Shown piece after piece: positions 5,527 to 38,035 of a DNA stretch of 38,035 nucleotides (within the stretch, counting starts at the first letter, position 1; each line of letters begins with the position of its first letter). The notes under the pieces are model-generated. The model was given only the letters and a program-made list of their open reading frames with translations. It was not told the origin of the DNA and made no database searches. The position numbers were made by a program, and so were the translations under genes. The stretch is taken from positions 1 to 38,035 of the IMG/VR virus record IMGVR_UViG_3300042922_000169. One strand, 5' to 3'. This DNA is from a virus.

Positions 5527-6186
5527 CTAACTGGCTTCCAGATATGCCAAGTCTTTAAACATATCCAATCTCTTTTTACAATCTTGATAAATATCCTTAT
5601 AATGCTTGTCCGTAATTATCCCGGCATCAACTACATGCAGTATGATATTTTCGATTAAGGACAGATTATTAAGCTGTGCAATTGTGGCAGCATCCCGATC
5701 CGTGATCCCGGCTACTTTATTAGCTAGTTTAGAATAGGTCATATAAAGCTTATCCGCATGTGTACTGCCTTGACCCTGTGCGTAGTCTACTAACTTCTGG
5801 ATCGTGTCCGTTTCGGCTTTTCTGGTTAGCTTGCCTTGGTATCTGGTGGCTATCCATTCATTGGACTGGCGTTCCAGAATGAAACGGCGCATTTCGTAGA
5901 ATTGACGAACAAGTTCTTTTTTGAATTCTATAACCCTCGGAGAGTTACCAAGGAATGTCATCAATAGCGTTGCTTGTGGTTCGTTTAAGTAATAGCATTT
6001 TGCATGCCTCGTACCCGCTTCATTAGTGGATTTCAAGTAGTCTGACAATTCGCCGAATGATTCAAAATACGCTGTGTATTTATTTAATAACTTTGCGACC
6101 GCTTGGTGTGAATTACCTGTCATTTCTGAAATTATCCAACTATCAGTAAAAACATCATTTCCTTTTAGAGAAACTAAGTTGTTCAA
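5527..6186 (-). CDS. Rha-family phage regulatory protein
   Basis: 219 aa. N-terminal VFTDSWIISEMTGNSHQAVAKLLNKY...FESFGEL matches the Phage_pRha pattern. The C-terminal part resembles the ORF6C/antirepressor-like region. Confidence 0.75.
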   Translation of the reverse strand: MNNLVSLKGNDVFTDSWIISEMTGNSHQAVAKLLNKYTAYFESFGELSDYLKSTNEAGTRHAKCYYLNEPQATLLMTFLGNSPRVIEFKKELVRQFYEMRRFILERQSNEWIATRYQGKLTRKAETDTIQKLVDYAQGQGSTHADKLYMTYSKLANKVAGITDRDAATIAQLNNLSLIENIILHVVDAGIITDKHYKDIYQDCKKRLDMFKDLAYLEAS

Positions 6187-6487: not shown

Positions 6488-6742
6488 CTATGCGCACTCT
6501 TCTTGTAGTTCGTGTTTCTGAACTTTTGGAGTAAAAAAATATAGAGGTATTTCGTCAATGCTCAACTCCAATACTTCGCACGCGTTTTTCATCTCGCTTC
6601 TTGACCAATCGAGATAGTTATTTAATCTCTGGCTCAGCGACACTTTACCCATTCCGATACGCTTAGCAAACTTGTTTTGTGTTCCACATTTTTCTTTTAT
6701 TTTACCCCTAAGTTTGCTATAGTCGAATTGTTCTAATGCCAT
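6488..6742 (-). CDS. Cro-like HTH regulator (DUF739/XRE type)
   Basis: Likely start is MALEQFDYSKLRGKIKEK at 6742 with RBS AAAGGAGGAA. HTH segment QNKFAKRIGMGKVSLSQRLN. Divergent from the CI-like gene. Confidence 0.75.
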   Translation of the reverse strand: MALEQFDYSKLRGKIKEKCGTQNKFAKRIGMGKVSLSQRLNNYLDWSRSEMKNACEVLELSIDEIPLYFFTPKVQKHELQEECA

Positions 6743-6760
6743 CAAGTTTCCTCCTTTCGT

Positions 6761-6870
6761 TCTTGTTTCTGAACTCATCTTATCACCCTTTGCATCATAG
6801 TGTCAAGGGCCTATTTCTTGTTTCTGAACTTTTTTTATTGCGAGACAATTTTTTGTTGCGTTTTCTGAAC
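6761..6870. promoter_or_regulatory. Operator array of the genetic switch: direct copies of core TTTCTGAAC
   Basis: TCTTGTTTCTGAACT is identical at 6761-6775 and 6816-6830 (55 bp apart). GTTTTCTGAAC is at 6860-6870, inside the rightward promoter spacer. A fourth copy, GTGTTTCTGAACT, is at 6512-6524 inside the 3' end of cro. Confidence 0.55.
6777..6806 (-). promoter_or_regulatory. Early leftward promoter (PR-like)
   Basis: On the minus strand: TTGACA (6801-6806), 18-nt spacer, TGaTAAGAT extended -10 (6777-6782). A 15-mer operator copy lies just downstream (6761-6775). Confidence 0.55.
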
Positions 6871-6884
6871 AATTGTGTTAATAT
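6856..6884 (+). promoter_or_regulatory. Rightward promoter for the CI-like repressor and integrase (PRM-like)
   Basis: TTGCGT (6856-6861), 17 nt, TAATAT (6879-6884), about 35 nt upstream of the repressor ATG. Confidence 0.45.
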
Positions 6885-6919
6885 GTAAAAAATAGTTATT
6901 ATACAGAAAGAGGATTGAT

Positions 6920-7378
6920 ATGAAAACAACTGCTGATAGAATTAAAGAAGCCTTGGATTTAAGAGGGATGAAACAAGCTGACTTAGTAGAAAAGACAGGT
7001 ATCGGGAAATCTTCAATTAGCACTTATATATCTGGCAGCTATGAACCAAAGCAACGCAACATATACAAAATAGCAAAAGCGCTTGATGTTAGCGAACCTT
7101 GGCTTATGGGGTTTGATGTTCCCATGGAGAGAACTTCTATGTCTCAATCAGATGAAAGTCCTGTAATGAAGGCTTTACTTAATTCAGATAACAAAAATTC
7201 AGCAATAACAGAAAAGTTTATAATGAAAAAACTAGCAGATAACATAGAGTTTGAATCGTTAGATTTTCATATGCTATCAGAATTCAAAAAACTTAATACC
7301 GAAGGTAAAAAAGAAGCCATTAACAGAATCATGGAATTAACTTTTGTGCCTAAATACGCAAAAGATTGTGTTGAGTAA
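6920..7378 (+). CDS. CI-like XRE-family repressor without an S24 peptidase domain
   Basis: 152 aa. N-terminal HTH RIKEALDLRGMKQADLVEKTGIGKSSISTYISG. The C-terminal ~80 aa is helical with no Ser/Lys peptidase motifs and no Ala-Gly site. Confidence 0.8.
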   Translation: MKTTADRIKEALDLRGMKQADLVEKTGIGKSSISTYISGSYEPKQRNIYKIAKALDVSEPWLMGFDVPMERTSMSQSDESPVMKALLNSDNKNSAITEKFIMKKLADNIEFESLDFHMLSEFKKLNTEGKKEAINRIMELTFVPKYAKDCVE

Positions 7379-7400: not shown

Positions 7401-8843
7401 ATGAAAACAGCCGCATTATATATTCGGGTGAGTACAGAGGATCAAACTGAATATTCCCCAGATGCTCAAAAACGACTTTTGACTGATTATGCGAATAAGA
7501 ATGGGATGAGTGTTTCGAATGAATTTATATTTATTGATGATGGAATATCAGGTAAGAAAGCAGATAAACGCCCACAATTTCAACACATGATAGGTCTTGC
7601 TAAATCAAAAGAGCACCCAATAGATGTGATTCTTGTATGGAAATATTCCAGATTTGCGCGGAATCAAGAAGAGAGTATTGTATATAAATCGTTACTAAAG
7701 AAAAATAACGTTGATGTGATAAGTATAACCGAACCATTAATTGATGGTCCATTCGGTACATTGATTGAGCGTATCATAGAATGGATGGACGAATATTATT
7801 CTATCCGCTTATCTGAAGAAGTTAAAAAGGGCATGACAGAAAAGGCAATGCGTGGAGAATATCAAACCTATGCTCCATTTGGGTATACTATGAAAAAAGG
7901 GGAAGGTCAACTAAAAATAGACGAAAACAAATCCGATACAGTTAGGCTTATTTTTGATATGTATCTAAATCAGTCTAAATCCTTTTTTTATATAGCCAGG
8001 CATCTGAATGACATGGGATTAAAATCCAGTAGAGGAAATAAGTTCGAGCATCGTACAGTCAAGTATATAATACAGAATCCAGTGTATAAAGGTTGGGTTA
8101 GGTGGAACCCATCCGGTCAAGTTGATATTAGGTATCAGAAGGATACACGCGAAGATACTATTTTAAAACAAGGGGAACACGAACCAATAATTGATGAATC
8201 TATCTGGGATGCTGCCAATGAAAAGATGGTGAAAGAATATCGTCCTTTAAACTCCAAGCCTAGAGAAGTTATGGTTCATTGGTTAAGTGGGATAATAGTG
8301 TGTAGTAACTGTGGTGGATCTTTAGTTTCAGGAGGTTCAGCGGGTGGGTTTCAATGCACATCTTACTCAAAGGGTAAATGTAAAATATCGCATTATGTAA
8401 GTTATACCAAAATAGAGAAGGCCGTAATCAATGCACTACAAGGAATATCTATAAGTGGGAATTTTGATTACGAAATTATTAACAGTACTACGGTTAATGA
8501 TGATGCAATAATTGAAAATGCGCTATTAAGGCTTGATCAGAAGGCGAAGCGTATGAAGGATGCATATTTAAATGGAGTTGATTCATTGGAAGAATATAAA
8601 GAAAATAAAATTAAATTTGAATTAGAACGACAGGATTTGATTGGCAGAATGTCCGTGAAAGATACTGTCTTAAAATCATCTGACACAGATCAAATAATGA
8701 TTGAAAGAATTAGTACAGCATTATCAATTATAACATCAGATGCTGACAGAGATAAAAAAAGTATAGCTATAAGGAGCATCATACAGAAGATTATATACAA
8801 TAAATCTAATGAAAATATTGATGTTTATTTATATTTGGCATAG
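7401..8843 (+). CDS. int: Large serine recombinase (integrase)
   Basis: 480 aa. Resolvase catalytic N-terminus AALYIRVSTEDQ, recombinase domain, zinc ribbon CSNCGG...C...C, C-terminal coiled coil. Confidence 0.9.
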   Translation: MKTAALYIRVSTEDQTEYSPDAQKRLLTDYANKNGMSVSNEFIFIDDGISGKKADKRPQFQHMIGLAKSKEHPIDVILVWKYSRFARNQEESIVYKSLLKKNNVDVISITEPLIDGPFGTLIERIIEWMDEYYSIRLSEEVKKGMTEKAMRGEYQTYAPFGYTMKKGEGQLKIDENKSDTVRLIFDMYLNQSKSFFYIARHLNDMGLKSSRGNKFEHRTVKYIIQNPVYKGWVRWNPSGQVDIRYQKDTREDTILKQGEHEPIIDESIWDAANEKMVKEYRPLNSKPREVMVHWLSGIIVCSNCGGSLVSGGSAGGFQCTSYSKGKCKISHYVSYTKIEKAVINALQGISISGNFDYEIINSTTVNDDAIIENALLRLDQKAKRMKDAYLNGVDSLEEYKENKIKFELERQDLIGRMSVKDTVLKSSDTDQIMIERISTALSIITSDADRDKKSIAIRSIIQKIIYNKSNENIDVYLYLA

Positions 8844-8982: not shown

Positions 8983-9162
8983 TTATTTCTCGTCCAGATA
9001 TATCAATACATAATTAATGCAATCTCTAAACGAACATAAGTTTTCTCTTCCGTATGGCGCCATAATTTCAATTACATTATTCATGTCCACGTCATTTTCG
9101 GATAATTTCTTGTTGACATCATTTGCGTCACTAAGCATTTTATACACATTCCCAACATCCAT
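8983..9162 (-). CDS. Small acidic protein (59 aa), unknown function, expressed from a LexA-box promoter
   Basis: MDVGNVYKMLSDANDVNKKLSENDVDMNNVIEIMAPYGRENLCSFRDCINYVLIYLDEK. RBS GGAGAGGG 6 nt upstream. It is below the size cutoff of the ORF track. Confidence 0.5.
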   Translation of the reverse strand: MDVGNVYKMLSDANDVNKKLSENDVDMNNVIEIMAPYGRENLCSFRDCINYVLIYLDEK

Positions 9163-9217: not shown

Positions 9218-9246
9218 ATTATATCAGAACAAACGTTCTACTTCAA
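9218..9246 (-). promoter_or_regulatory. Sigma-A-type promoter with a LexA (Cheo) box in the spacer
   Basis: Minus strand: TTGAAG (9241-9246), 17 nt, TATAAT (9218-9223). The spacer contains AGAACGTTTGTTCT (9226-9239), a perfect GAAC-N4-GTTC. Confidence 0.65.
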
Positions 9247-9533: not shown

Positions 9534-9758
9534 CTATTTTTCCATGTAAGTTAACGTTTCATAGTCTATATCAAATACATGCTCTAATTTGAAACCAAGA
9601 CCATGGGAAATTTTAATTGCATCGGACAGTTTAGGGTCCACTTCCATTCTTTCTATTCTGCCTAGAGTTGATTTAGATACCTTTGCTATGGATGCAAGAT
9701 CGTCTAAAGTAAGCCCTAACTGGTGTCTTATTGGTCGCGCGAAATTTATTGGTATCAT
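9534..9758 (-). CDS. XRE-family HTH regulator (74 aa)
   Basis: Likely start is MIPINFARPIRHQLGLTLDDLASIAKVSKSTLGRIERME, with RBS AAAGGAG. The track ORF extends to 9794. Confidence 0.7.
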   Translation of the reverse strand: MIPINFARPIRHQLGLTLDDLASIAKVSKSTLGRIERMEVDPKLSDAIKISHGLGFKLEHVFDIDYETLTYMEK

Positions 9759-9793
9759 GGCATCATCTCCTTTTTCGTCAGAATAAAATATCA

Positions 9794-9825
9794 ATACTTT
9801 TAGTATTATATTTTTACTATTAGTA
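9794..9825. promoter_or_regulatory. Two palindromic operator-like sites between the divergent HTH genes
   Basis: ATACTTTTAGTAT (9794-9806) and TACTATTAGTA (9815-9825). Both are TACT-N-AGTA-type palindromes. Confidence 0.45.
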
Positions 9826-9887
9826 TATGCATTGGTTGTGTTGTTCCTCCAAATTTGATATGATACATTTTCTTAAGGGGTGCAAAC

Positions 9888-10178
9888 ATGATTGACGGTA
9901 AAGAATTTGGACAACGGATCCGCAGTGCGCGGCAAAGAAAAAATATAAAACAACTTGCACTATGTGAATTAGCTGATATAAGCCAGCCCAGGCTATCAGC
10001 TATGGAGAATGGCGACACCAATATGTTGATAAACTCGCTTGATAAAATAGCGGAAACCCTAGAAGTGCCTGTTTCTTGGCTCCTGGGTGAGGATGTTATT
10101 AGTGTAAATGGATTAACTACCGATGAAATATTAGAATTATTGAAATACAAAGAATTGTTAATAAGAAAACGTAAATAA
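9888..10178 (+). CDS. XRE-family HTH regulator (96 aa)
   Basis: FGQRIRSARQRKNIKQLALCELADISQPRLSAMENG is a classic HTH_3 pattern. RBS AAGGGGTG. Confidence 0.75.
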   Translation: MIDGKEFGQRIRSARQRKNIKQLALCELADISQPRLSAMENGDTNMLINSLDKIAETLEVPVSWLLGEDVISVNGLTTDEILELLKYKELLIRKRK

Positions 10179-10390
10179 GCCTTTATCCACATGGATTTAG
10201 GCTTTTATGCACTTTGTACACGAAAGCACTTTATTATCTCCTTTATGCCAAGTATACAAAATATACCAGATCGGATATAATAAAGGAGTCTTGGAGAGAC
10301 AGTTGGTATTATTGGATGAAATAGATATTAAAGAACGGACGGGAACCCTGTGCTGCTGCATGGGGTTTTCGGTGTTGAGGAGGAATAAAG

Positions 10391-10627
10391 ATGAATACAC
10401 CAATAGCTGTTAAAGCTGCATTTTCCGTCACTGGAGAGATTAAGCCTTTGTATGTGCAATTAGAAGATAAAGCATACAAAATACATGAAATCGAATATTC
10501 GAAAGAAGAAATCTATGTTGGTATAGCAACTATCCTATTTTGCTGTTATATAGAGCGGAATGGCCAGCCGGAAAGAATCAAGATAAGGTTTCATCGGAAT
10601 ACAACACAATGGGTATTGATAAAATAG
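10391..10627 (+). CDS. Small protein of an unassigned family (paralog 1 of 3 in this genome)
   Basis: 78 aa. RBS GGAGGA-N7-ATG. It aligns with 34439..34708 on shared residues (P.Y.Q..D..YK...I.Y.K.EI..GI.T.LFCC..E..G....IK.R.H..T.QWVLI). Confidence 0.65.
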   Translation: MNTPIAVKAAFSVTGEIKPLYVQLEDKAYKIHEIEYSKEEIYVGIATILFCCYIERNGQPERIKIRFHRNTTQWVLIK

Positions 10628-10662
10628 CCCTGGCCATCTCTGCCCATGGCTTATTATTACGC

Positions 10663-10676
10663 AGAACAAATGTTCA
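10663..10676. promoter_or_regulatory. LexA (Cheo) box
   Basis: AGAACAAATGTTCA, a perfect GAAC-N4-GTTC, in the intergenic region 30 nt upstream of a TATAAT (10706-10711). Confidence 0.55.
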
Positions 10677-10737
10677 AATTCACAGTTTTCACAGCTTTAA
10701 CATAGTATAATACTTGTTAAAGGGAGGTGAAAGCTTC

Positions 10738-10793: not shown

Positions 10794-10836
10794 TAAACAT
10801 GTGTTCGTTGCAATCTTAAGTATATCACTGTATAAT
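10794..10836 (+). promoter_or_regulatory. Promoter of the DUF3467 operon with an adjacent degenerate LexA-like box
   Basis: TTGCAA (10808-10813), 17 nt, TATAAT (10831-10836). TAAACATGTGTTCG (10794-10807) has one core mismatch to GAAC-N4-GTTC and abuts the -35. Confidence 0.55.
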
Positions 10837-10873
10837 AATACCATAAAACATATTTGATACGGAGGATAATACT

Positions 10874-11131
10874 ATGAATGAACAACCGATAATCACTACT
10901 AATAACGTAGAACCATTATCATCAAATGCAATAGAAATGAATTTCAGCATATATGAAGTGAGCATGAATTTTTTAAGAGACACTGCGGCGAATGGATCAA
11001 TTACCAGAGAATCCATGGCTGACATTAGAATTAGTCCACAATTAGCAAAAATGATTACTTTTCTAATGCAGGAAAATATAGGTAAGTACGAAAAAGAATT
11101 CGGCGTTATACCTATGCCAAAACAACCATAA
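10874..11131 (+). CDS. DUF3467-like protein
   Basis: 85 aa. ...IRISPQLAKMITFLMQENIGKYEKEFGVIP matches the DUF3467 C-terminal signature as I remember it. Confidence 0.55.
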   Translation: MNEQPIITTNNVEPLSSNAIEMNFSIYEVSMNFLRDTAANGSITRESMADIRISPQLAKMITFLMQENIGKYEKEFGVIPMPKQP

Positions 11132-11140
11132 GGTGAACAT

Positions 11141-11485
11141 ATGATGAATAATTACATAAATACAACTGATGTATTTGGGAATAATATTATATGCAGTGAG
11201 GATCATTGGAATAATCACGTAGCCGCAGGAAGTCATAAGATAATGTCAAAAAACAAAGATGCTGTGGTTGATACTCTTAGATCTCCTGATGCTGTGTATA
11301 ATTCAAGTGACTATGCGAACAGAAAAGTTTTTTTCAAGAAATCGACGCATTCTTCATATGACTGCAACCGATTTAATACTAAAGTAGTTGTAGGTTATGA
11401 CTCAAATCAATCAGGTGAAATCATTACAGCATTTCCTTCACCTGGAGAAAAAGGAGGAATAGGCGATGTCATATACCCAGAATAA
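11141..11485 (+). CDS. Toxin-like small protein (possible barnase/RelE-fold nuclease, uncertain)
   Basis: 114 aa. ICSEDHWNNHVAAGSHKIM....DTLRSPDAVYNS....RKVFFKK. The downstream gene, a DUF2283-type partner, overlaps it by 20 nt. The assignment rests mainly on context. Confidence 0.3.
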   Translation: MMNNYINTTDVFGNNIICSEDHWNNHVAAGSHKIMSKNKDAVVDTLRSPDAVYNSSDYANRKVFFKKSTHSSYDCNRFNTKVVVGYDSNQSGEIITAFPSPGEKGGIGDVIYPE

Positions 11486-11723
11486 AGTCAGTTATGACAA
11501 GAAATATGATGTACTCTATTTCAGTTTAGAGGATAATGATAATTCTTATGGCGATGAAATAGAGGATAATATTGTTTTCATGAAAGATATAGATACAAAT
11601 GAAATTACCGGAATTACTGTAATGGGCTTCTTGAGATATTTTTCTAATACACCCGAACGGCTTGACTCACTAAAACCATTTTTGGATGTATCGGAAATAG
11701 CAAATAAGTGCGCCAATATGTAA
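11466..11723 (+). CDS. DUF2283-like protein (antitoxin-type partner)
   Basis: 85 aa. SYDKKYDVLYFSLEDNDNSYGDEIEDNIVFMKDIDTNEITGITVMGF matches the DUF2283 pattern. RBS GGAGGA-N7. Confidence 0.6.
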   Translation: MSYTQNKVSYDKKYDVLYFSLEDNDNSYGDEIEDNIVFMKDIDTNEITGITVMGFLRYFSNTPERLDSLKPFLDVSEIANKCANM

Positions 11724-29900: not shown

Positions 29901-30251
29901 TTACCACCTCTCCTCTGTTAATGGCTTCTCTTTCTTCTCTGGTTGTCTATATCCATGTAGTTCCTCATGACAGTTATGGCATACTGCTATAAGGTTTCGC
30001 CTTATCTCTCCTTTGAATGTGTATGTCTTGCTTAGTGCATACCTTGGATGCTTGCGTACATACTGTACATGATGCACATGATTGGCTTTAGTATATAGCC
30101 CTTTGCTTTTACATATCTGGCATTCATACTTAGACTCTACTAATACTTCTTTCCTTAACGCCCTCCACTCAGGAGATACATAGAAGTCATGCAGCCTATC
30201 TTCACCTATTAACTTAGTTATCCAATTACTTACCTGATCTTCACTCATCAT
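29901..30251 (-). CDS. HNH endonuclease (packaging-associated)
   Basis: 116 aa. CQIC....HHVQYV....NLIAVCHNCHEELH. It sits upstream of terS as in HK97-like cos phages. Confidence 0.85.
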   Translation of the reverse strand: MMSEDQVSNWITKLIGEDRLHDFYVSPEWRALRKEVLVESKYECQICKSKGLYTKANHVHHVQYVRKHPRYALSKTYTFKGEIRRNLIAVCHNCHEELHGYRQPEKKEKPLTEERW

Positions 30252-30345
30252 CCCAGGTTCCCACCAACCCTATGTCATTGGACGATACATTGCCCGGCTT
30301 ACGCCACACCACTGTATATAATTCTTACGTCGCTGCATAATAAAA

Positions 30346-30377
30346 GGCACCGTTACGAGAATCCCCGTTTCGATGCC
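30346..30377 (-). terminator. Hairpin plus T-run downstream of the tRNA
   Basis: Minus strand: GGCATCG-N18-CGGTGCC followed by TTTTATTAT. Confidence 0.4.
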
Positions 30378-30536
30378 TGCCTCCGCTCTTGGAGGTCTTG
30401 AAATGTATTTTATCGCCTTATTTCTTAAGGCTTATACTTTGCTAGAGATGCTATGAGTCTATATCTCTGTAGCATCTCTTATTTAGATATTACACGTGTG
30501 CCGCCCATTAGATGCTATTCTATGTAAGGCGGTTAA

Positions 30537-30611
30537 TGGATACTAAGGGATTTGAACCCCTGACTTCGGAGTTATGAGCTCCGCGCTCTAACCAGGCTGA
30601 ACTAAATATCC
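30537..30611 (-). tRNA. tRNA with anticodon CAT (Met, or Ile2 if lysidine-modified)
   Basis: Minus strand: GGATATTTAGTTCAGCCTGGTTAGAGCGCGGAGCTCATAACTCCGAAGTCAGGGGTTCAAATCCCTTAGTATCCA. It has a 7-bp acceptor stem, D arm AGTTCAGCCTGGTTAGAGC, anticodon loop CTCATAA and T loop GGTTCAAATCC. Confidence 0.85.
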
Positions 30612-30748
30612 ATGTATGCCATGTTTTTGAGGTTAGGCACATGGCAGCCTATGTATGTGCATCATGAAGAAGTTTTGTTATATCTGTTATATTACATCTA
30701 TCCATGCTATTACTATAGCACACTTCAAGCGGACATGTCGGACAAATA

Positions 30749-31186
30749 TCAATTAGTATAAAAGAATCTTTCAAATTCCTTTCTTACACTTTCATCTGTC
30801 GTCCTTTTTCCACCGATGTTCATAGCTACCTGAGGCCAAGTCATATCGTCAATGAATTTATATCTTATAATACGCCTCATTCTGCTATCGTCTATAGACT
30901 GTATGTATTCCTCTACTTTTATGGTCATATCCTCTATCTTTGGTATTGCACTCTCGTACTGAGCCTTATTGATATATAGCCTGGTTTTCTTTCTGCTATA
31001 CTCTGGGTAAGGGAAACCCCTAATCATGAAGTGCTGAGTTCCGCCTAACCCTCCTGTCACTGAATCAGATACACATTTTTCATCCTCGATACGATTAATA
31101 TCACTTTCAAGCTTTTCTATCCTCTTATGAATATCCTTGGCCTCTTGCTTTAAATCGCAATACTGTACTAATATATCCTTGGTCAA
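30749..31186 (-). CDS. Late-gene transcriptional activator candidate (sigma-70 region-4-like HTH)
   Basis: 145 aa. TTG start after GGAGGGGA. N-terminal coiled coil. C-terminal SRMRRIIRYKFIDDMTWPQVAMNIGGKRTTDESVRKEFERF resembles sigma region 4. It sits just upstream of the packaging genes. Confidence 0.5.
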   Translation of the reverse strand: MTKDILVQYCDLKQEAKDIHKRIEKLESDINRIEDEKCVSDSVTGGLGGTQHFMIRGFPYPEYSRKKTRLYINKAQYESAIPKIEDMTIKVEEYIQSIDDSRMRRIIRYKFIDDMTWPQVAMNIGGKRTTDESVRKEFERFFYTN

Positions 31187-31189
31187 TCA

Positions 31190-31327
31190 ATCCCCTCCTA
31201 TCTCCCTCTCTATTTTTTCGATTATCTCTTTTAGATTCTGCTCCATCAGATCATTACCATGTCCGTCACATATCCAGCACCGGTCGGTATCTTCATCCGG
31301 GCAGCGTTCGCAAAAGTCAGTTCTCAT
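31190..31327 (-). CDS. Small zinc-ribbon protein (45 aa)
   Basis: MRTDFCERCPDEDTDRCWICDGHGNDLMEQNLKEIIEKIEREIGGD. Its ATGA overlaps the MazG stop. Confidence 0.45.
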
Positions 31328-31722
31328 ATAACCTTCCCTCCGTGCTTGTAAGGTCTTGATTTATTGAACTCATGCTTTTCTATTAGCATTGATTCAATAT
31401 CAATTCCATAGTGATGGCACATATCGAAGATACGAATTACAACATCTGCTAACTCTGACGGTATTCCTTCTGGTTTACCTAAAAATTCGCATCCCTCACA
31501 ATTATCAGGAGTTACTCCGCAAAACTCACTTGGTGTTTTGCATGAATAATATGTATCATTCGGATTTTTACCTTTGCGGTATTCCTCAAGAGCCTCGGAT
31601 AATTCAGAATGACATAAAGCTATTAACTCACCGAAGCTTCTCTCTTCTCCGTCCCACCAACCATGATCTATAGCATTCTCTCCTACTTCTTTTACAAACT
31701 CTTTAATATTTAAATTATACAT
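31324..31722 (-). CDS. mazG: MazG-like nucleotide pyrophosphohydrolase
   Basis: 132 aa. ELIALCHSELSEALEEYRKG and ELADVVIRIFDMCHHYGIDIE are the two MazG EXXE/D helices, with a Cys-rich insertion between them. Confidence 0.7.
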   Translation of the reverse strand: MYNLNIKEFVKEVGENAIDHGWWDGEERSFGELIALCHSELSEALEEYRKGKNPNDTYYSCKTPSEFCGVTPDNCEGCEFLGKPEGIPSELADVVIRIFDMCHHYGIDIESMLIEKHEFNKSRPYKHGGKVI

Positions 31723-31798
31723 AGACTTCTATCCCTTTCTTAATCTCGTATTTAGCCCTGAGAGCTATTTTAATTTGGTTTTGGTATTAATCCTTGGC

Positions 31799-31990
31799 TT
31801 ATGTTTCTTTGCCTCTTGTTTCCCTTATTGCCTTAATGATTTCATCTTTCGCATCCCATAAGCAAGTCATTATTCCCACAATTCCTAATATAATAATTCC
31901 GCAACTTGCAAGCCATCTTTCATCCGTTATATATCCGTACAGTACTTGCACCATAGCAAATAAGAAGAATAATGTTACATTTAATTTCAT
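31799..31990 (-). CDS. Small membrane protein (2 TM)
   Basis: 63 aa. LFFLFAMVQVLYGYI and GIIILGIVGIMTCLW. Confidence 0.5.
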   Translation of the reverse strand: MKLNVTLFFLFAMVQVLYGYITDERWLASCGIIILGIVGIMTCLWDAKDEIIKAIRETRGKET

Positions 31991-32349
31991 TCCACTGCAC
32001 CGCCTTTCAATGCTTGTTCGGCTGCTTCTCTGGTAAGGAATACGGTTTTACCTATATCACTTACAGAAAATTCGTATCCACTTCCTTTACCGTGACCTTC
32101 TATTACTTTGACATAGAAACTTAATTCATTCTTGTAATGGAAACCAAATACCTCACAGGTGATAATGCCGTGCTCCTTAAACCATATATCAACTTCATAA
32201 ACCGTATCACCATCCTTACATGGCAACTTAACCAATAACCCTTGTTCCTCTGCATCCTCATAAGCAGATAATTTATTCAGATACTTATATATTCCTTCAT
32301 CCATACAATCACATGATCCGTATGTGACTCCTGGTGTTGTTAACCTCAT
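31987..32349 (-). CDS. Hypothetical early protein
   Basis: 120 aa. LPCKDGDTVY ... VFLTREAAEQAL is a motif common in Firmicute phage proteins of unknown function. Confidence 0.5.
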   Translation of the reverse strand: MRLTTPGVTYGSCDCMDEGIYKYLNKLSAYEDAEEQGLLVKLPCKDGDTVYEVDIWFKEHGIITCEVFGFHYKNELSFYVKVIEGHGKGSGYEFSVSDIGKTVFLTREAAEQALKGGAVE

Positions 32350-32615
32350 AGGCTTCTCCCTTCTATCACCTCAAAATAATCACAATCACCACATTCTTTA
32401 TCCTTGCATTCAGCGAAGACATTCATCTGAGTAATTTCACATACTTTCTTGCAATGAATAACTTTATAGTCGAATGTATCAGTTGGTCTTATGTATCCTA
32501 ATGGATATTCGCAATTATGACAGTCCTGGATATCACAATTTTCGTTCTGACAGTATTTCTGGATCACTTCGACAGCGTTTTTAAAGTCTTTTGGCATATC
32601 TTCATAAAAGCTCAT
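32346..32615 (-). CDS. Cys-rich hypothetical protein
   Basis: 89 aa with 10 Cys, including CHNC and CGDC. Confidence 0.5.
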   Translation of the reverse strand: MSFYEDMPKDFKNAVEVIQKYCQNENCDIQDCHNCEYPLGYIRPTDTFDYKVIHCKKVCEITQMNVFAECKDKECGDCDYFEVIEGRSL

Positions 32616-32639
32616 ATGTTTTATCTCCCTTCTGATAAA

Positions 32640-32843
32640 TCAAATTAGCAATAAATCAACTAATCTTATATTTTCTTTTTTAAGTCTTTCGTCCTTCATC
32701 TCAATAAATTTATCAATTAATTCATCTTTTGTAAGGTTCTGAACGCAGGCATTGGTTAGGTCTTTATCTATGTCTAATTCACCTGCTATAACAACTATTG
32801 CATTTATCAATCTTTCTCTTGCTTCTGTTACGTTATCTTTCAT
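32640..32843 (-). CDS. Hypothetical protein
   Basis: 67 aa, helical. RBS GGAAAGGAAG. Confidence 0.45.
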   Translation of the reverse strand: MKDNVTEARERLINAIVVIAGELDIDKDLTNACVQNLTKDELIDKFIEMKDERLKKENIRLVDLLLI

Positions 32844-32943
32844 ATCTTCCTTTCCGATGCAGGAACCGGCTCAGCCTGCCGCTCCTGCATCTATATCAAT
32901 CCCGGACTTGCCGGACGGATTGCTTAGTTACCTAAATATCAGT

Positions 32944-33840
32944 TTAGCTAATTAATTCTAAGTCTAATTCCATCTGGTCAGGATCTTCGTTCATCCACCA
33001 CTGGAATACTTCCTCACCGGATTTCCACTCGGTTTCCAGTCCTCTACGAAGCCTTTCTTTAATCATCCGGTCAAAAGCATGGATATAAAGGGTTTGGTAT
33101 TTAGGGAATACGGCAAATTCAAAATATCTCTTCTTATTCGCCAATGGACACCCGATACAACCAACTCTATCAAATCCCATGCAGTATAATGGATTGCATT
33201 CGAGCTTTTCAGAATGGATGTAATCCCAAATATCTGTATTTGTCCATTCAATGATTGGGTTACACACCGATTTAGCGCGAAGCTCACACTTTTCAAAGAA
33301 TCTTCTGTTGGTGTCATTGTCATTGGTTAATATGATTTTGCTCTGAGGATCATCGTTATCTGAAAGCTTAATCTTATTTTTCTTTGTACTCCCTATGATC
33401 TCCATGCCCCCCTTAGTTGATCTTTGAGTACTTTCATCCCAACGAACCCCAGTTGCTATCATCCGTCCGTCTCCGGCTCCTTCTTTAAGCACCTGACAGC
33501 AATATCTTGCCTTTCTAGTTGGAGGCATTAATTTTAGTGGTATGAGTGTCCACATTGAAATTGGTTCGCCTTGATATCTAGGTTTTTCTATAGTACACTT
33601 GATTCCCTTAAGCTCCAGATCATAAAACTTTTTCTTTATGTATCTGACTGTTTCAGGAGCGTCAGCGGTTGTATGGCTATTCTGTACTTCGAACGGGATA
33701 CCGCTTCTTATCACCAATTCAAGCTGCACATCACTGTCTTTCCCACCGCTATATGTAACTAGAAGAGGCTGTCCATAATATCTTAACGACATTTCACTAG
33801 CCATTCTCAGCCGTTCAAATGATTTATGTTCTAAATCCAA
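32944..33840 (-). CDS. PAPS reductase-family protein (IbrA/DndC-like adenine-nucleotide alpha-hydrolase)
   Basis: 298 aa. PP-loop LLVTYSGGKDSDV, ..RWDES, C-terminal Cys cluster CNPLYCMGFDRVGCIGCPLA. Confidence 0.75.
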   Translation of the reverse strand: MDLEHKSFERLRMASEMSLRYYGQPLLVTYSGGKDSDVQLELVIRSGIPFEVQNSHTTADAPETVRYIKKKFYDLELKGIKCTIEKPRYQGEPISMWTLIPLKLMPPTRKARYCCQVLKEGAGDGRMIATGVRWDESTQRSTKGGMEIIGSTKKNKIKLSDNDDPQSKIILTNDNDTNRRFFEKCELRAKSVCNPIIEWTNTDIWDYIHSEKLECNPLYCMGFDRVGCIGCPLANKKRYFEFAVFPKYQTLYIHAFDRMIKERLRRGLETEWKSGEEVFQWWMNEDPDQMELDLELIS

Positions 33841-33871
33841 TCCGCACCTCCTTATTTAACTAAATCCTTAA

Positions 33872-34306
33872 TTAGTCCTGCGTCGTCAGAAGAAATTGCT
33901 TCTCTTCCAGCTTCTCAAAAAGCGTTCTACCATGGTTATCTACTATGTAAGGCATGAATATTTCTTCCATCCGAACCATTTCGATATCAAGTAATGCCAT
34001 CTGTGCCTCAACCCAATCCTTAAGAATGCGCCATGCTACACGCTCCGCTTGATCTCTGGTATCCTTCACACTTTTAACTCCGGCTTTCTTTTCTTTCTTC
34101 AAAACCGCAAGGCACTCATTAACCTTAACCGGAAGTTTAATCGGTACTTGGTTGTATCCAGTATCAATCAAGAATGATAAACCAGTTATACTATCTCCTT
34201 CAAACTCCTTCATAATGGATTTAGCCTTATGTTTCATCAAAATATATTCAATTTCCGATACCGTTTTAAAAGCATCGATTGTAGTTGTGTAGTTCAATAT
34301 TGCCAC
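33872..34306 (-). CDS. Hypothetical protein
   Basis: 144 aa. GTG start after AAGGGAGGAA. Confidence 0.5.
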   Translation of the reverse strand: MAILNYTTTIDAFKTVSEIEYILMKHKAKSIMKEFEGDSITGLSFLIDTGYNQVPIKLPVKVNECLAVLKKEKKAGVKSVKDTRDQAERVAWRILKDWVEAQMALLDIEMVRMEEIFMPYIVDNHGRTLFEKLEEKQFLLTTQD

Positions 34307-34367
34307 TGAGTTTCCTCCCTTCGCTATTGAGGTAAAACTTTACTTCTCCAAACCCATTTAATTACTC

Positions 34368-34416
34368 TTTACACTACAATCCAAAAGTACTATAATTAAC
34401 TCCGAACACATGTTCT
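34368..34416 (+). promoter_or_regulatory. Near-consensus promoter with a LexA (Cheo) box over the transcription start
   Basis: TTTACA (34368-34373), 17 nt, TATAAT (34391-34396). CGAACACATGTTCT is at 34403-34416, with a perfect GAAC-N4-GTTC core. Confidence 0.65.
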
Positions 34417-34438
34417 TGTTTTCTATTCCGGAGGCCTT

Positions 34439-34708
34439 ATGAACGAACCAGTACACGCAATTGCAACCTTTCTAACTGATGGCACCATACACCCTCATTA
34501 CATTCAAGTAAATGACGTTACCTATAAACTAGGCGATATCGTTTATATCAAAGATGAAATCTTTGCAGGCATCCCAACTAGACTATTTTGTTGCTGCTTA
34601 GAGGCTGACGGTACCACACATGAAATAAAGGTTAGGTATCATTTTCGCACCCATCAGTGGGTCTTAATCGGAGGTTCGGACAATGCCATTTTTAAATCCA
34701 GTACGTAG
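34439..34708 (+). CDS. Small protein of an unassigned family (paralog 2)
   Basis: 89 aa, homologous to 10391..10627. Counter-oriented inside the early operon. Confidence 0.65.
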   Translation: MNEPVHAIATFLTDGTIHPHYIQVNDVTYKLGDIVYIKDEIFAGIPTRLFCCCLEADGTTHEIKVRYHFRTHQWVLIGGSDNAIFKSST

Positions 34709-34964
34709 GCCTGTTATCCAACACCCGGAAGGGCACCCAGTGGATGTAATCGTATCTGTCAGTATTGATGCTAGATTTAGGATTGATTACATCCGGCTGG
34801 AGGATGATCGTGGTGAACGGTTTACTTATAAGATTTCCTATTGCCATTTACGCAAGGCATTTAACTTCATTGAAACCTATGATTGCGAATATGTAGCCAA
34901 TGGGAGGATTAATTATATTACCCTTGTGTTTGATGTTATGGAGCATTATTGGGTTTTGGGATGA
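34683..34964 (+). CDS. Small protein, distant third member of the same family (paralog 3)
   Basis: 93 aa. RBS GGAGG-N8-ATG. The previous gene overlaps it by 26 nt. It shares the pattern ...YIRLEDD..ERFTYKI.Y......F....YDCEY...G....I.L.F....H.WVLG. Confidence 0.55.
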   Translation: MPFLNPVRRPVIQHPEGHPVDVIVSVSIDARFRIDYIRLEDDRGERFTYKISYCHLRKAFNFIETYDCEYVANGRINYITLVFDVMEHYWVLG

Positions 34965-35432
34965 TTACTCCTTGTATGTTTCTGGTAGTGGTTTCCATGC
35001 GATAACGTCAAATTCATCACCTAATATGTAATTGCCATTGTCTGCTATAGCATTATCTTCATACCAGCACTCAGGAACCCAAAAGCAATCATTTTCCTCG
35101 TCATACTCAGTGTCAACATATTCAGTGTCCCATCCCCAATCCTCGGTTGTGTGACTATGTGGAGCGTTGTAACATGCTTTATATATAAAATATCCTCTTG
35201 CTCCATCTTTTCTTCGTGCTGTTACAATAACCGGATTATCATTCTCTGGAAGCCGTTCTGATGTCGGTATCCATCCGTTATTTAATTGCTGAGTGAGTGC
35301 GGATATTGCAAGCTTGGTTGCCTTTTCTTGCTCGTTCCAATCAATAACATATGATTCTTCTCTAAGGCTTTTAATCTCATCTAAAAACTCTTCCCAGTAT
35401 TCAATAGCCTTTTCAATCTCTTGCTTATTCAT
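34965..35432 (-). CDS. DUF551-like protein
   Basis: Preferred start is MNKQEIEKAIEYW at 35432. GWIPTSERLPENDNPVIVTA is the typical DUF551 signature. Confidence 0.55.
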   Translation of the reverse strand: MNKQEIEKAIEYWEEFLDEIKSLREESYVIDWNEQEKATKLAISALTQQLNNGWIPTSERLPENDNPVIVTARRKDGARGYFIYKACYNAPHSHTTEDWGWDTEYVDTEYDEENDCFWVPECWYEDNAIADNGNYILGDEFDVIAWKPLPETYKE

Positions 35433-36003
35433 CCTTGACAGCTCCTTCCAAATTGTGTCCGTATGGATCAATCCCTAACTCTCTGCACTTTGCAATACTA
35501 CTTGTCATTCCGGAGGTAGATGTACCGCTCATTAATAAATCTCTTACTACAACCCAGTTTTGATTTCTAAGTCCGTATACTTTAGGCATGTTTGATAAAT
35601 AGTTTTTGAGAAGTCTTATTTCATCCGGTTCAATAGGACGGAATTTGTCCATCATATCGCACCACTCAATAAAGGCCTCTATAATCGGTTTTGTATCCCT
35701 GCTGGCAGCCCATCCAGCGAAGCCTATAAATCCATCGTAGTTAAAGCTTATGCACTCTCTTTTGCGCCATTCACGGCTGTTTAAACGAATGTAACTACAA
35801 AGCAAATTACCATTCGTTTTGTATCTTGCATCAATCTTTTGGCTCAAGTGTATTGTATCATCTGACATTTCGTGATTCTTGCAGGCTCTCTTGATATGCT
35901 TGTTTAATATCATTATGAGGCAGCATATATCTCCGCTTGTTATATCCGAATATGTAAGGCCTTTATCATCGAAATATTGTCTTGCTTCATCGTTCGTCAT
36001 CAT
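35425..36003 (-). CDS. Hypothetical early protein
   Basis: 192 aa, tightly packed in the operon. Confidence 0.5.
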   Translation of the reverse strand: MMTNDEARQYFDDKGLTYSDITSGDICCLIMILNKHIKRACKNHEMSDDTIHLSQKIDARYKTNGNLLCSYIRLNSREWRKRECISFNYDGFIGFAGWAASRDTKPIIEAFIEWCDMMDKFRPIEPDEIRLLKNYLSNMPKVYGLRNQNWVVVRDLLMSGTSTSGMTSSIAKCRELGIDPYGHNLEGAVKDE

Positions 36004-36325
36004 TGAAAACTCCTTTCACGATATTTGCGGCTCTCTGCACTACTTGATTAGCAAATCTTATGTTTTCATCTTTCATAATATGGTTTATTTGCTCCACAAC
36101 CTTATCCACATCGTAGGCAGTATGAAGATCACTTATGCCGTCTATGGCTTCATATGCATCTATCAGTGTTAGATTTTGATTTCCATACATATTTCCATCG
36201 GTACACAAGTTTTCTATTACCTGTATTGCTGCTTTACGGCTTATTAAATCACCTTTATGCTCACTTTGAAGCTTTACATCCTTTATGCTCATTTGGCCTT
36301 CACACTCGTAATTAAATACATCCAT
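35987..36325 (-). CDS. Hypothetical early protein
   Basis: 112 aa. Confidence 0.5.
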   Translation of the reverse strand: MDVFNYECEGQMSIKDVKLQSEHKGDLISRKAAIQVIENLCTDGNMYGNQNLTLIDAYEAIDGISDLHTAYDVDKVVEQINHIMKDENIRFANQVVQRAANIVKGVFNDDER

Positions 36326-36645
36326 TACACCGCCTGCCTTTCTCTCGGCTTAACATACTTATGTGGCTTGCCTTTTATCATTACGGTTACAATCCGTCCG
36401 CCTCTGTCTAATTCTCTGGCAGCTCTAAGCATTTCATTCCACTTGTCAACGAGCTCGTCTCTGATCTCCCCATCAACCACGATTTTGTACAATCCCTTTG
36501 CTTTCGTTTTATTTCTCGCGTATTTATTCACAAATCCGGCTGGGATGCTTATAATCGAAGAAACTTGCATACATGTTAAATTAGTACCTACAATTGTTTC
36601 TCTCCCATTGTTTGGATGTACTTTTATTACGGAATATGTATTCAT
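36325..36645 (-). CDS. Hypothetical early protein
   Basis: 106 aa. Its TAATG overlaps the downstream gene. Confidence 0.5.
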   Translation of the reverse strand: MNTYSVIKVHPNNGRETIVGTNLTCMQVSSIISIPAGFVNKYARNKTKAKGLYKIVVDGEIRDELVDKWNEMLRAARELDRGGRIVTVMIKGKPHKYVKPRERQAV

Positions 36646-36833
36646 TCATCTTCCTCCTCTAAGGCCTTAATATCTCCGTCCCCGGATACCAGTATGCCTT
36701 GCTTATAACTCTTACCTACTTTTACTTTGGCTCTCTCTACGGTAAACCCATTCTCTACAAGGATACCGGCTATTGTCTGTAATTTATCTAACCCATTGAT
36801 TGGGATGAATACTTTACCATCCTTTATAATCAT
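36642..36833 (-). CDS. Hypothetical small protein
   Basis: 63 aa. Its ATGA overlaps the downstream gene. Confidence 0.45.
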   Translation of the reverse strand: MIIKDGKVFIPINGLDKLQTIAGILVENGFTVERAKVKVGKSYKQGILVSGDGDIKALEEEDE

Positions 36834-36842
36834 GATTACCTC

Positions 36843-37415
36843 CTAATCTTCATCCCTGTTGATTGATATGGGTAATACAAGCCTTAAGCACCTTTTGTCT
36901 TTTAAATCCCTGATGATGACCGGGTCTTTTTCCCCTCTGGTTTCAATCATTGTCCGCTTCTTTTCTCCGTGATAGTTTATACCTTTCAGTGCCTCGGTTA
37001 GAAACAACGGGTCAATTCCGATCTTTGACAATGGTTTAATCAATTCCGTATCTGCTAACATTTTCTTGGTATCGTACCATTCACCCTCAGGCTGCTTGAA
37101 TTTTAGGCTATAAAATCCTAAATCGATTTTTGCATATCCATTGTAAAGTTCTATTTCAGTTTCCGTGGAATCCGTTTTCCATGGGTTAAATGGCTTAATG
37201 TAAACCGAAAAGCTTCTTTCTGTTTTGCATTTAACATATTCAATTGCAATTCGATGTCCGTCTAATGCCTCACATCTAGCCTCCTGTGTAACCTTGTTAA
37301 ACTCGATAAAGATATGTTCCATCTTTTTATCAGTGTATTGGTTGTATTTCATAACGAAAGGCTTTAGAGCCTTAATAACTCTTATTAATTCATCAGTCTT
37401 AATTGATGCTTTCAT
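36843..37415 (-). CDS. Half-size beta-sliding-clamp-like protein (tentative)
   Basis: 190 aa. CEALDGHRIAIEY resembles the DnaN ATDGHRLA motif. The C-terminal DPLFLTEALKGI ... CLRLVLPISI resembles the DnaN domain-III ending (..YL.dAL... yllMP.r.). It lies next to the replisome organizer. Confidence 0.35.
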   Translation of the reverse strand: MKASIKTDELIRVIKALKPFVMKYNQYTDKKMEHIFIEFNKVTQEARCEALDGHRIAIEYVKCKTERSFSVYIKPFNPWKTDSTETEIELYNGYAKIDLGFYSLKFKQPEGEWYDTKKMLADTELIKPLSKIGIDPLFLTEALKGINYHGEKKRTMIETRGEKDPVIIRDLKDKRCLRLVLPISINRDED

Positions 37416-37424
37416 GCTTACCTC

Positions 37425-38035
37425 CTAAAGATTCTTGTTTAATAGCTTCTTTTCCATCTCGGCATAATCCTGAGCGGTATATGTTCGCTGTGGGAAATCA
37501 TGCTGCTTATTTATTGGTTTTGGTTGCTGTTGTGGCTTATTCTCTTGCTTGAGAGGAAATAAACCTTTCCAACCGCTTACTATAGATTGATTAATGATAG
37601 CTATTTGGGTCGATATATCCGGTGATAACTTAGGCAGCTGCTTAATCATTAAGTCAATAGCCTTATCCGTCATAGGAGCTTTCATGGATTTACTTTTTCT
37701 GAACTCTATGAAATCTAAAATAGCTTGATTTAATAACAGATCATCAACGTAATTTTTTATATTATCGTTAGATAATATATTGTTATCATTATTCTCATTA
37801 TTGTTTGTGCTTTTTGGTGTTTCCTCGGTGTTTCCTTTGCGTTTCTTTGGTGTTTCCTTGGTGTTTCTTGAATTCTGGAAATCGCTATATTTTACAATGG
37901 TTATAGCTGTTTCCTTGGTGTTACTATTTTTTTCTATCATGTGTTCCTTTTCGAGAACATTCAAAAAATCAAAAACTTTCTTCCGTGACCAGCCCCAACG
38001 ATCAGCTAATTTCTTTATGCTTGTGATGCGAGACC
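37425..38035 (-). CDS. Replisome organizer (DnaD-like), C-terminal two thirds. The N-terminus runs off the window end and is completed by 287..1.
   Basis: C-terminal DnaD-like domain LLNQAILDFIEFRKSKSMKAPMTDKAIDLMIKQL...IINQSIVSGWKGLFP. Low-complexity Asn/Lys/Thr linker. Confidence 0.75.
   Translation of the reverse strand, partial: SRITSIKKLADRWGWSRKKVFDFLNVLEKEHMIEKNSNTKETAITIVKYSDFQNSRNTKETPKKRKGNTEETPKSTNNNENNDNNILSNDNIKNYVDDLLLNQAILDFIEFRKSKSMKAPMTDKAIDLMIKQLPKLSPDISTQIAIINQSIVSGWKGLFPLKQENKPQQQPKPINKQHDFPQRTYTAQDYAEMEKKLLNKNL
37816..37870. repeat. Five tandem 11-bp iterons inside the replisome-organizer gene (candidate origin)
   Basis: GGTGTTTCCTC GGTGTTTCCTT TGCGTTTCTTT GGTGTTTCCTT GGTGTTTCTTG. 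A sixth copy, GCTGTTTCCTT, is at 37906-37916. An AT-rich tract at 37741-37810 is adjacent. Confidence 0.55.
37909..38035. repeat. Terminal direct repeat, right copy, identical to 1..127
   Basis: Same 127 nt as the window start. Confidence 0.95.

Follow-up and report, generated by a model that had tools for sequence, protein, structure and literature searches.

A small gene pair under predicted LexA control in a phage genome belongs to a family linked to Y-family polymerases in Lachnospiraceae

Introduction

Accessory genes of mutagenesis are known to be borne by plasmids and phages, as in the case of MucA, RumA and the SPbeta YolD protein, which is found with UvrX. In the Bacillota, the YolD/YqjX proteins (PF08863) have been proposed as the analogue of UmuD, YolD being paired with the YqjW/UvrX subfamilies. 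Here we analyze two overlapping small open reading frames, termed ORF1 and ORF2, that follow a putative LexA-binding site at positions 34368-34964 of a viral DNA of 38,035 nucleotides (nt), IMG/VR record IMGVR_UViG_3300042922_000169, the whole of which is hereafter called the window. Comparative analysis indicates that this unit is best read as a variant, duplicated and borne by a phage without the polymerase, of a family of accessory proteins of SOS translesion synthesis that databases leave unannotated.

The closest described proteins are the stand-alone ImuB-C proteins (DUF6504, PF20114 in Pfam), which were defined by Aravind, Anand and Iyer in 2013 as small, all-beta proteins in which a C-terminal Trp is conserved along with basic residues and whose genes most often lie beside those for DinB, SRAP and LexA (PMC3765255). 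The supplement of that work gives DinB-ImuBC-SRAP operons for C. hylemonae, Lachnospiraceae bacterium 3_1_57FAA_CT1, C. hathewayi, C. leptum, Acetivibrio and others (PMC3765255). Timinskas and Venclovas later reported, in 2019, that ImuB-C is coupled to two subgroups of YqjH, chiefly in Clostridia (PMC6511836), and a survey published in 2026 modelled ImuB-C as a beta-barrel, a fold without relatives in the PDB and unlike the SH3-like UmuD' and YqjX (PMC12926913). In the models of that survey, an N-terminal arm inserts into the polymerase in UmuD', in YqjX and in a third accessory subunit of the YqjW/UvrX type, ImuB-C not being one of the three. Finally, phage P1 encodes HumD, a functional homologue of UmuD' according to the statement in PMC4713147 that cites McLenigan 1999. 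ImuB-C-type proteins have been predicted for more than 10 years to aid mutagenic polymerases and the studies consulted still describe their role as unclear; we found no experimental work on the Clostridial branch.

Results

Organization of the ORF1-ORF2 unit

The features of the unit are as follows.

34368-34396, plus strand: sigma-70-type promoter, TTTACA (34368-34373), 17-nt spacer and TATAAT (34391-34396), read from the sequence
34403-34416, no strand assigned: LexA (Cheo-type) box CGAACACATGTTCT, beginning 6 nt past the -10 element (gap 34397-34402)
34430-34434, plus strand: GGAGG ribosome-binding site of ORF1, 4 nt ahead of the ATG
34439-34708, plus strand: ORF1, 89 amino acids (aa), a family member of the short type, which in chromosomes is linked to polymerases (ORF call, tblastn and AlphaFold2, AF2)
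34670-34674, plus strand: GGAGG ribosome-binding site of ORF2, within the 3' end of ORF1
34683-34964, plus strand: ORF2, 93 aa, a family member of the long type, in which an N-terminal arm, MPF(L/F)NP...GHP, is conserved (ORF call)

The promoter agrees with the consensus at 11 of 12 positions and is joint best among the promoters of the 30000-38035 region. LexA of the Bacillota binds Cheo boxes of the CGAAC-N4-GTTCG type, and CGAACACATGTTCT matches this consensus at 9 of the 10 specified positions, a figure equivalent to the 13 of 14 counted in the original prediction, which had been made on this DNA from its sequence and an ORF list. The predicted transcription start, some 7 nt past the -10 element, falls inside the box, so that the operator overlaps the core promoter and start site. 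ORF2 is in the +1 frame relative to ORF1, with which it overlaps by 26 nt, and both genes that flank the pair, 33872-34306 and 34965-35471, run along the minus strand. The latter converges on ORF2, and the stop codons of the two abut. Past ORF2, no terminator was detected on the plus strand. The promoter, the box placed 6 nt behind it and the two overlapping plus-strand genes set between minus-strand genes are hence all as originally described.

A protein family without database annotation

Neither ORF1 nor ORF2 matches a Pfam or PHROG family, and a profile search of PDB sequences returned chance antibody matches only; the statement of the original prediction that the proteins fit no recognized family is borne out by these searches. 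A word-indexed search of 5.8 billion proteins recovered for ORF1 only itself and for ORF2 a single relative of 60% identity. That search gave almost only self-matches, and the family came to light only through an exhaustive profile search of 1.84 billion representatives, which yielded 115 clusters at E<=1e-3, nearly all of 75-110 aa. Its members are labelled 'hypothetical protein' at NCBI. An alignment of 78 sequences presents the signature PVxVIAxF...G.I.P.YFR...YKI...K...[FY]xC...G...IxLx[YF]....HxW, with a near-invariant G, C and C-terminal W; the latter is found in 77 of the 78, K/R occupies two columns in 65 and 58 of them, and R/K a third column in 46. Among the 25 families listed out of 40 in an hmmscan of these 78 members, no Pfam family recurs even at E<=10.

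ORF1 and ORF2 are themselves weak paralogues (27% identity over 78 aa, E 0.002 in a single comparison), homologues of the latter being 45-60% identical to it. The AF2 model of ORF1, with a predicted local distance difference test score (pLDDT) of 91.8, consists of six beta strands, and that of ORF2 (pLDDT 85) has the same six-strand topology preceded by a low-confidence N-terminal arm. Foldseek matched neither model to a PDB entry at E<=0.001, no SH3, UmuD or LexA C-terminal-domain chain being among the top 50 matches listed, and in BFVD the only match was to another uncharacterized member of the family. On the other hand, a 202-aa protein (P0007), found on four contigs, is a natural head-to-tail fusion of a short, ORF1-type domain and a long, ORF2-type domain; its gene is counter-oriented and has a LexA-like box, and its relatives each align to just one of the two domains. 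This fusion argues that ORF1 and ORF2 work together.

Chromosomal relatives adjoin Y-family polymerase genes

The distribution of the family was surveyed in one genome per species with a profile built from a five-sequence alignment, two broader alignments having been too diverse. The scan identified 55 loci, the named records of which are nearly all Lachnospiraceae or unclassified metagenome-assembled genomes of Clostridia or Bacillota, with one labelled Anaerolineaceae; genera represented include Mobilitalea, Herbinix, Lachnoclostridium, Diplocloster, Anaerocolumna and Lachnotalea. In 46 of these 55 loci the family gene lies directly 3' of a gene for a Y-family polymerase of the DinB/YqjH type, which it often overlaps, and SRAP was detected nearby in 15 loci. 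Members P0123 and P0124, for instance, begin at or overlap the stop codon of a PF00817 (IMS_C) Y-family polymerase gene, sometimes with SRAP just upstream, and P0128 adjoins a convergent polymerase operon. Chromosomal copies are co-oriented with the polymerase gene. A further copy, in Anaerocolumna jejuensis (locus L065), stands alone with its LexA box among housekeeping genes for an aminotransferase and a FAD-oxidase, with no phage nearby.

It is the short type that corresponds to these chromosomal partners. By tblastn, ORF1 is 30-48% identical to genes found 3' of polymerases (E 1e-11 to 1e-21), and the range becomes 30-56%, with all conserved positions kept, when a third copy in the window (10391-10627) is included, E values for the two together running from 1e-10 to 5e-23. 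The lowest of these belongs to the third copy, which is 48% identical to ORF1.

Predicted LexA-binding sites in the window and in related loci

A 14-mer of the CGAACACATGTTCT type, with at most one mismatch, is unique in the window; since 27 of 100 shuffled sequences held at least one, the 14-mer taken alone is not significant window-wide. The exact GAAC-N4-GTTC core, in contrast, occurs three times against 0.22 expected, a count reached in none of 100 shuffles. A weight matrix trained solely on the promoters of Y-family polymerases from other genomes placed the site at 34400-34419 at the top of the window (17.8 bits), followed by sites at 9223 (17.3 bits) and 10660 (14.3 bits); these three sites of at least 12 bits compare with a mean of 0.23 in shuffles.

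Similar boxes recur in related loci, denoted here by L numbers. Allowing one core mismatch at most in a GAAC-N4-GTTC-like box, and with a background of 0.022 per search window, a box is present between -130 and -20 in 13 of the 15 independent transcription units that contain a family member (binomial tail 2.5e-20). The boxes lie within or beside the core promoter in L001, L002, L004, L019, L020, L074, L076, L080, L082, L063 and L065, and in L005 and L015 a LexA-like box is found upstream of the polymerase. The promoter region of the polymerase gene had been captured for 42 of the 46 polymerase-linked loci, and in 41 of these a LexA-like box precedes the polymerase start by no more than about 180 nt. 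The best-defined arrangements are listed below.

L001: AGAACAAACGTTCT within the spacer of TTGATA-17-TATAAT
L002, L004, L080 and L082: cAAACATTTGTTCt adjoining the -10 element
L019: CGAACGTTTGTTTG in the spacer
L020: cAAACAAATGTTCG
L074: AGAACGTTTGTTCT in the spacer
L065, stand-alone homologue of Anaerocolumna jejuensis: two boxes, one of them the identical 14-mer CGAACACATGTTCT, about 115 nt before the start codon
Polymerase operons (about 40): boxes of the CGAACATAAGTTCT type, some 44 nt ahead of the polymerase start

The operator is thus kept across homologues although the promoters differ, and this comparison, together with the rank of the site in the window, makes SOS control of the ORF1-ORF2 unit by LexA very likely, as the original prediction had proposed.

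Phage-borne relatives and probable host

Nine further entries (L001, L002/3, L004, L013, L014, L019, L080/81, L082 and L083) show, as in the window, a single plus-strand gene amid a run of minus-strand genes. These phage-borne copies are counter-oriented and have no polymerase alongside. One of the contigs with an ORF2-type gene, L004, also encodes (7771-7998) a protein of 75 aa whose sole match is to the DNA-binding domain of LexA (PF01726) and which might be a non-cleavable LexA mimic. A prophage end in Clostridium sp. KNHs205 (L074/L075, 3448-5759) comprises a holin gene and an M15 endolysin gene, the product of the latter being 67% identical to that of the window, and harbors a family copy controlled by a LexA box in the same relative position as the window's 10391-10627 gene; this likeness points to a Lachnospiraceae host for the phage of the window.

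A search of the deposited phage collection gave no match to the DNA at 33800-35500 and none by tblastn with ORF1 or ORF2, and pattern scans of IMG/VR and of metagenomes found no relatives; the plasmid collection gave two weak matches only, both in Clostridium estertheticum.

Third paralogue and other features of the window

The remaining family copy and LexA-type boxes of the window are the following.

10391-10627, plus strand: third paralogue, of the short type (78 aa), located among the accessory genes that separate the serine integrase gene from the lysis genes
10663-10676, no strand assigned: third LexA-type box AGAACAAATGTTCA, 14.3 bits, just past the stop codon that ends the third paralogue and directly beside a weak -35 element of the plus strand at 10679
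9226-9239, no strand assigned: second strong LexA box AGAACAAACGTTCT, 17.3 bits, within the spacer of a minus-strand promoter, TTGAAG-17-TATAAT (9246-9218)

The candidate promoter of the third paralogue is TATACA-17-TATAAT (10253-10281). In the region 10391-10710, box AGAACAAATGTTCA is flanked by weak promoters on both strands and by a mini-ORF of 14 codons. The minus-strand promoter that contains AGAACAAACGTTCT faces a 59-aa ORF (8983-9162, minus strand) located just past the serine integrase gene and followed by a hairpin. This ORF has no family match except a weak, sub-threshold one to DUF3993 (E 0.002), and the public collection does not annotate it as a gene. It could be the true SOS-triggered antirepressor of the phage, or an excision factor, and is at least as good a candidate for either role as ORF1 and ORF2.

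A degenerate half-box, TAAACATGTGTTCG (10794-10807), abuts the -35 element of a TTGCAA-17-TATAAT promoter, downstream of which (10794-11723) are three genes, coding for a DUF3467 protein, a protein with a weak PBECR2-like nuclease match and a DUF2283 protein, that may form a toxin-antitoxin-like module. The accessory-gene region further holds two divergent genes for small Xre-type helix-turn-helix (HTH) proteins at 9534-10178 (86 aa, minus strand; 96 aa, plus strand), which look like a second repressor/Cro-like switch apart from the main switch at 6488-7378. Rha-family proteins are frequently annotated as antirepressors, and a gene for one (PF09669) lies in the early operon at 5527-6186, beside a DUF739 Cro-like gene and without a LexA box. 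A PAPS-reductase-like gene (PF01507, phrog_424; 32944-33840, minus strand) is situated in the early region two genes downstream of the ORF1-ORF2 unit, and a tRNA gene is present on the minus strand at 30537-30611 (Rfam RF00005, 62.5 bits).

Discussion

The ORF1-ORF2 unit is best interpreted as an SOS-controlled accessory cassette, or 'moron', of a temperate phage with a Lachnospiraceae-type host. We consider it probable, at roughly 0.6, that its two products are SOS-induced accessory proteins acting on a translesion polymerase of the host, in analogy with HumD of P1. In a lysogen, host LexA bound to CGAACACATGTTCT, over the start site of the near-consensus promoter, would hold both genes off; following DNA damage, activated RecA would promote LexA self-cleavage and the genes would be transcribed independently of the phage early operon and in the direction opposed to it. 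ORF1 and ORF2 would then associate, probably as a heterodimer, and probably bind the host Y-family polymerase, of the DinB/YqjH type, together with RecA, adapting translesion synthesis while the damaged cell and its prophage replicate. The phage would bring the small partner only, as P1 does with HumD, and would probably gain in that damaged DNA, of the prophage and of its host, is replicated. In the long type the N-terminal arm, conserved and yet modelled with low confidence, may fold on a partner.

Several results weigh against this interpretation. Neither a Y-family polymerase nor SRAP was found in the window, and the proposed partner must therefore be supplied by the host. The third paralogue lacks a LexA box in its own promoter, and no recognizable box is present at L083 or at two more distant phage homologues (L013 and L014). 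The contigs on which the long type was observed are all phage-like (L001, L002, L004, L080, L082 and L083), and this type could have acquired a different job. As for the identity of the family, a match of its 78 members to PF20114 was not obtained among the 25 of 40 families listed by hmmscan at E<=10, whereas the plasmid-encoded ImuB-C of Deinococcus deserti, annotated as DUF6504, matches PF20114 at E 6e-7. An hhalign comparison of the family with this protein gave a probability of 1.3%, a weak test given that the template was a single sequence, and covered only the C-terminal 30 columns, in the expected register. Support for the role of the family comes, moreover, from sequences and models rather than from experiment.

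The original prediction had taken the unit for a LexA-controlled antirepressor, in which ORF1 and/or ORF2 would bind the non-cleavable CI-like repressor and lead to induction, as described for 186 Tum, the Gifsy antirepressors and P1 Coi. Its LexA control is upheld by comparison. Its claim about the repressor is supported too, the product of 6920-7378 having an HTH_3 domain only and no Peptidase_S24 match; in addition, the LexA-box promoter is located in a prophage and, according to PMC4713147, the promoter of P1 coi has a LexA site as well. The antirepressor role itself now appears improbable. Relatives are found directly 3' of LexA-box polymerase genes in dozens of Lachnospiraceae chromosomes, the Anaerocolumna jejuensis member sits by itself away from any phage, and the Pfam and PHROG searches revealed no likeness to known antirepressors, such as the Tum, Ant/KilAC and Coi families. 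The phage-like contigs also differ widely, as judged from gene neighbourhood and insertion site rather than from their repressors, a spread that would not be typical of repressor-specific antirepressors, and the window presents other candidates in the LexA-controlled 59-aa ORF beside the integrase gene and in the Rha-family protein. The combination of polymerase-linked and stand-alone chromosomal copies thus points to a component of SOS and translesion synthesis instead of a repressor-specific antirepressor. What remains of the antirepressor proposal applies mainly to the long type, which besides being restricted to phage-like contigs is always counter-oriented and usually has a LexA-like box. 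The same restriction admits, with a similarly low probability, that the long type is an exapted accessory barrel of translesion polymerases, serving as a damage sensor or induction trigger or as a hijacker of host mutagenesis; by itself or joined to the short type in a heterodimer, it would dock on host RecA filaments or on the Y-family polymerase after LexA cleavage, and prophage induction or phage replication would, if this were true, be coupled to the mutasome itself instead of to cleavage of the repressor. A role as cell-division inhibitor or toxin was set aside, given the lack of Pfam or PHROG matches and a chromosomal linkage that is to polymerases.

The phage copies might also act as decoys or inhibitors: bound to the Y-family polymerase or to the RecA filament of the host, they would block or redirect its translesion synthesis or SOS signalling in favor of phage replication. 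That the phage has the small partner only and never the polymerase, and that it holds three diverged copies, one of them of the phage-specific long type with its extra conserved arm, would fit such a scheme. In published models the arms of other accessory subunits insert in the polymerase (PMC12926913), and by analogy a changed arm could lead to a different outcome. None of the findings speaks for interference directly, however, and the identity of the short type to chromosomal partners, with every conserved position retained, suggests the same activity rather than a decoy; we regard this scheme as rather unlikely. Very little probability attaches to the idea that the promoter mainly provides an SOS-triggered convergent transcript, interfering with or antisense to the minus-strand early operon, the ORFs being secondary. 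The abutting stop codons of ORF2 and the 34965-35471 gene, the lack of a detected plus-strand terminator and the recurrence of counter-orientation in all phage-borne homologues are compatible with it, but both ORFs have strong GGAGG sites, the proteins keep 45-60% identity across otherwise unrelated contigs and have confident predicted folds, and the chromosomal copies run with, not against, the polymerase gene.

Read as a host-polymerase accessory cassette, the unit has implications beyond this phage. Its presence here and in at least nine other phage-like contigs indicates that the protein is mobile, being carried without a polymerase and with a compact, LexA-wired promoter of its own, and that the family comprises in phages two diverged types that are able to be fused. 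Two genes and one operator constitute a small, separable genetic handle on translesion synthesis in gut and biogas Clostridia, with which one may also ask if temperate phages modulate the mutagenesis of their host or how well they themselves survive in damaged cells. The case also corrects an annotation shortcut, in that a LexA box ahead of a small phage gene of unknown function does not alone imply an antirepressor.

Comparison with known systems

The family described here probably represents the Clostridial branch of stand-alone ImuB-C; the sequence link to PF20114 is not closed, and the identity is for that reason graded as probable and not as proven. The two share a size of about 80-100 aa, an all-beta composition (six-stranded in our models), a near-invariant C-terminal Trp and conserved basic residues, and the homologues of ORF1 and ORF2 adjoin a Y-family polymerase, have SRAP nearby in some genomes and appear to be under LexA control, in a gene order equal to that of the published Clostridial operons. 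Lachnospiraceae and other Clostridia are represented in both. That Foldseek gave no PDB match at E<=0.001 for our models is consistent with the published description of the ImuB-C fold as one without PDB relatives. The copies in the window differ in having no polymerase, SRAP or lexA neighbour, standing alone in a phage, and in forming a tandem duplicate with a third copy elsewhere, one type bearing an extra N-terminal arm.

With 186 Tum, GfoA/GfhA of Gifsy and P1 Coi, the unit has in common the small gene or genes behind a LexA operator and a prophage repressor without a self-cleavage domain; it differs in that there is no homology and that its relatives are chromosomal partners of polymerases, unlinked to a phage repressor. 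YolD/YqjX resembles it more closely as a small SOS-induced protein in an operon with a Y-family polymerase that also occurs on a prophage (SPbeta), yet PF08863 was matched by none of the 78 family members and the top 50 Foldseek matches listed include nothing SH3-like. HumD and UmuD' are likewise S24/SH3-like, whereas the Pfam searches gave no Peptidase_S24 match for ORF1, ORF2 or the family, which did not match them in the fold search either, and its polymerase is by published description of the DinB/YqjH and not of the UmuC type. In its proposed logic, nevertheless, the unit would parallel P1 and HumD, a mobile element bringing only the small subunit of an SOS translesion polymerase and depending for the polymerase itself on its host.

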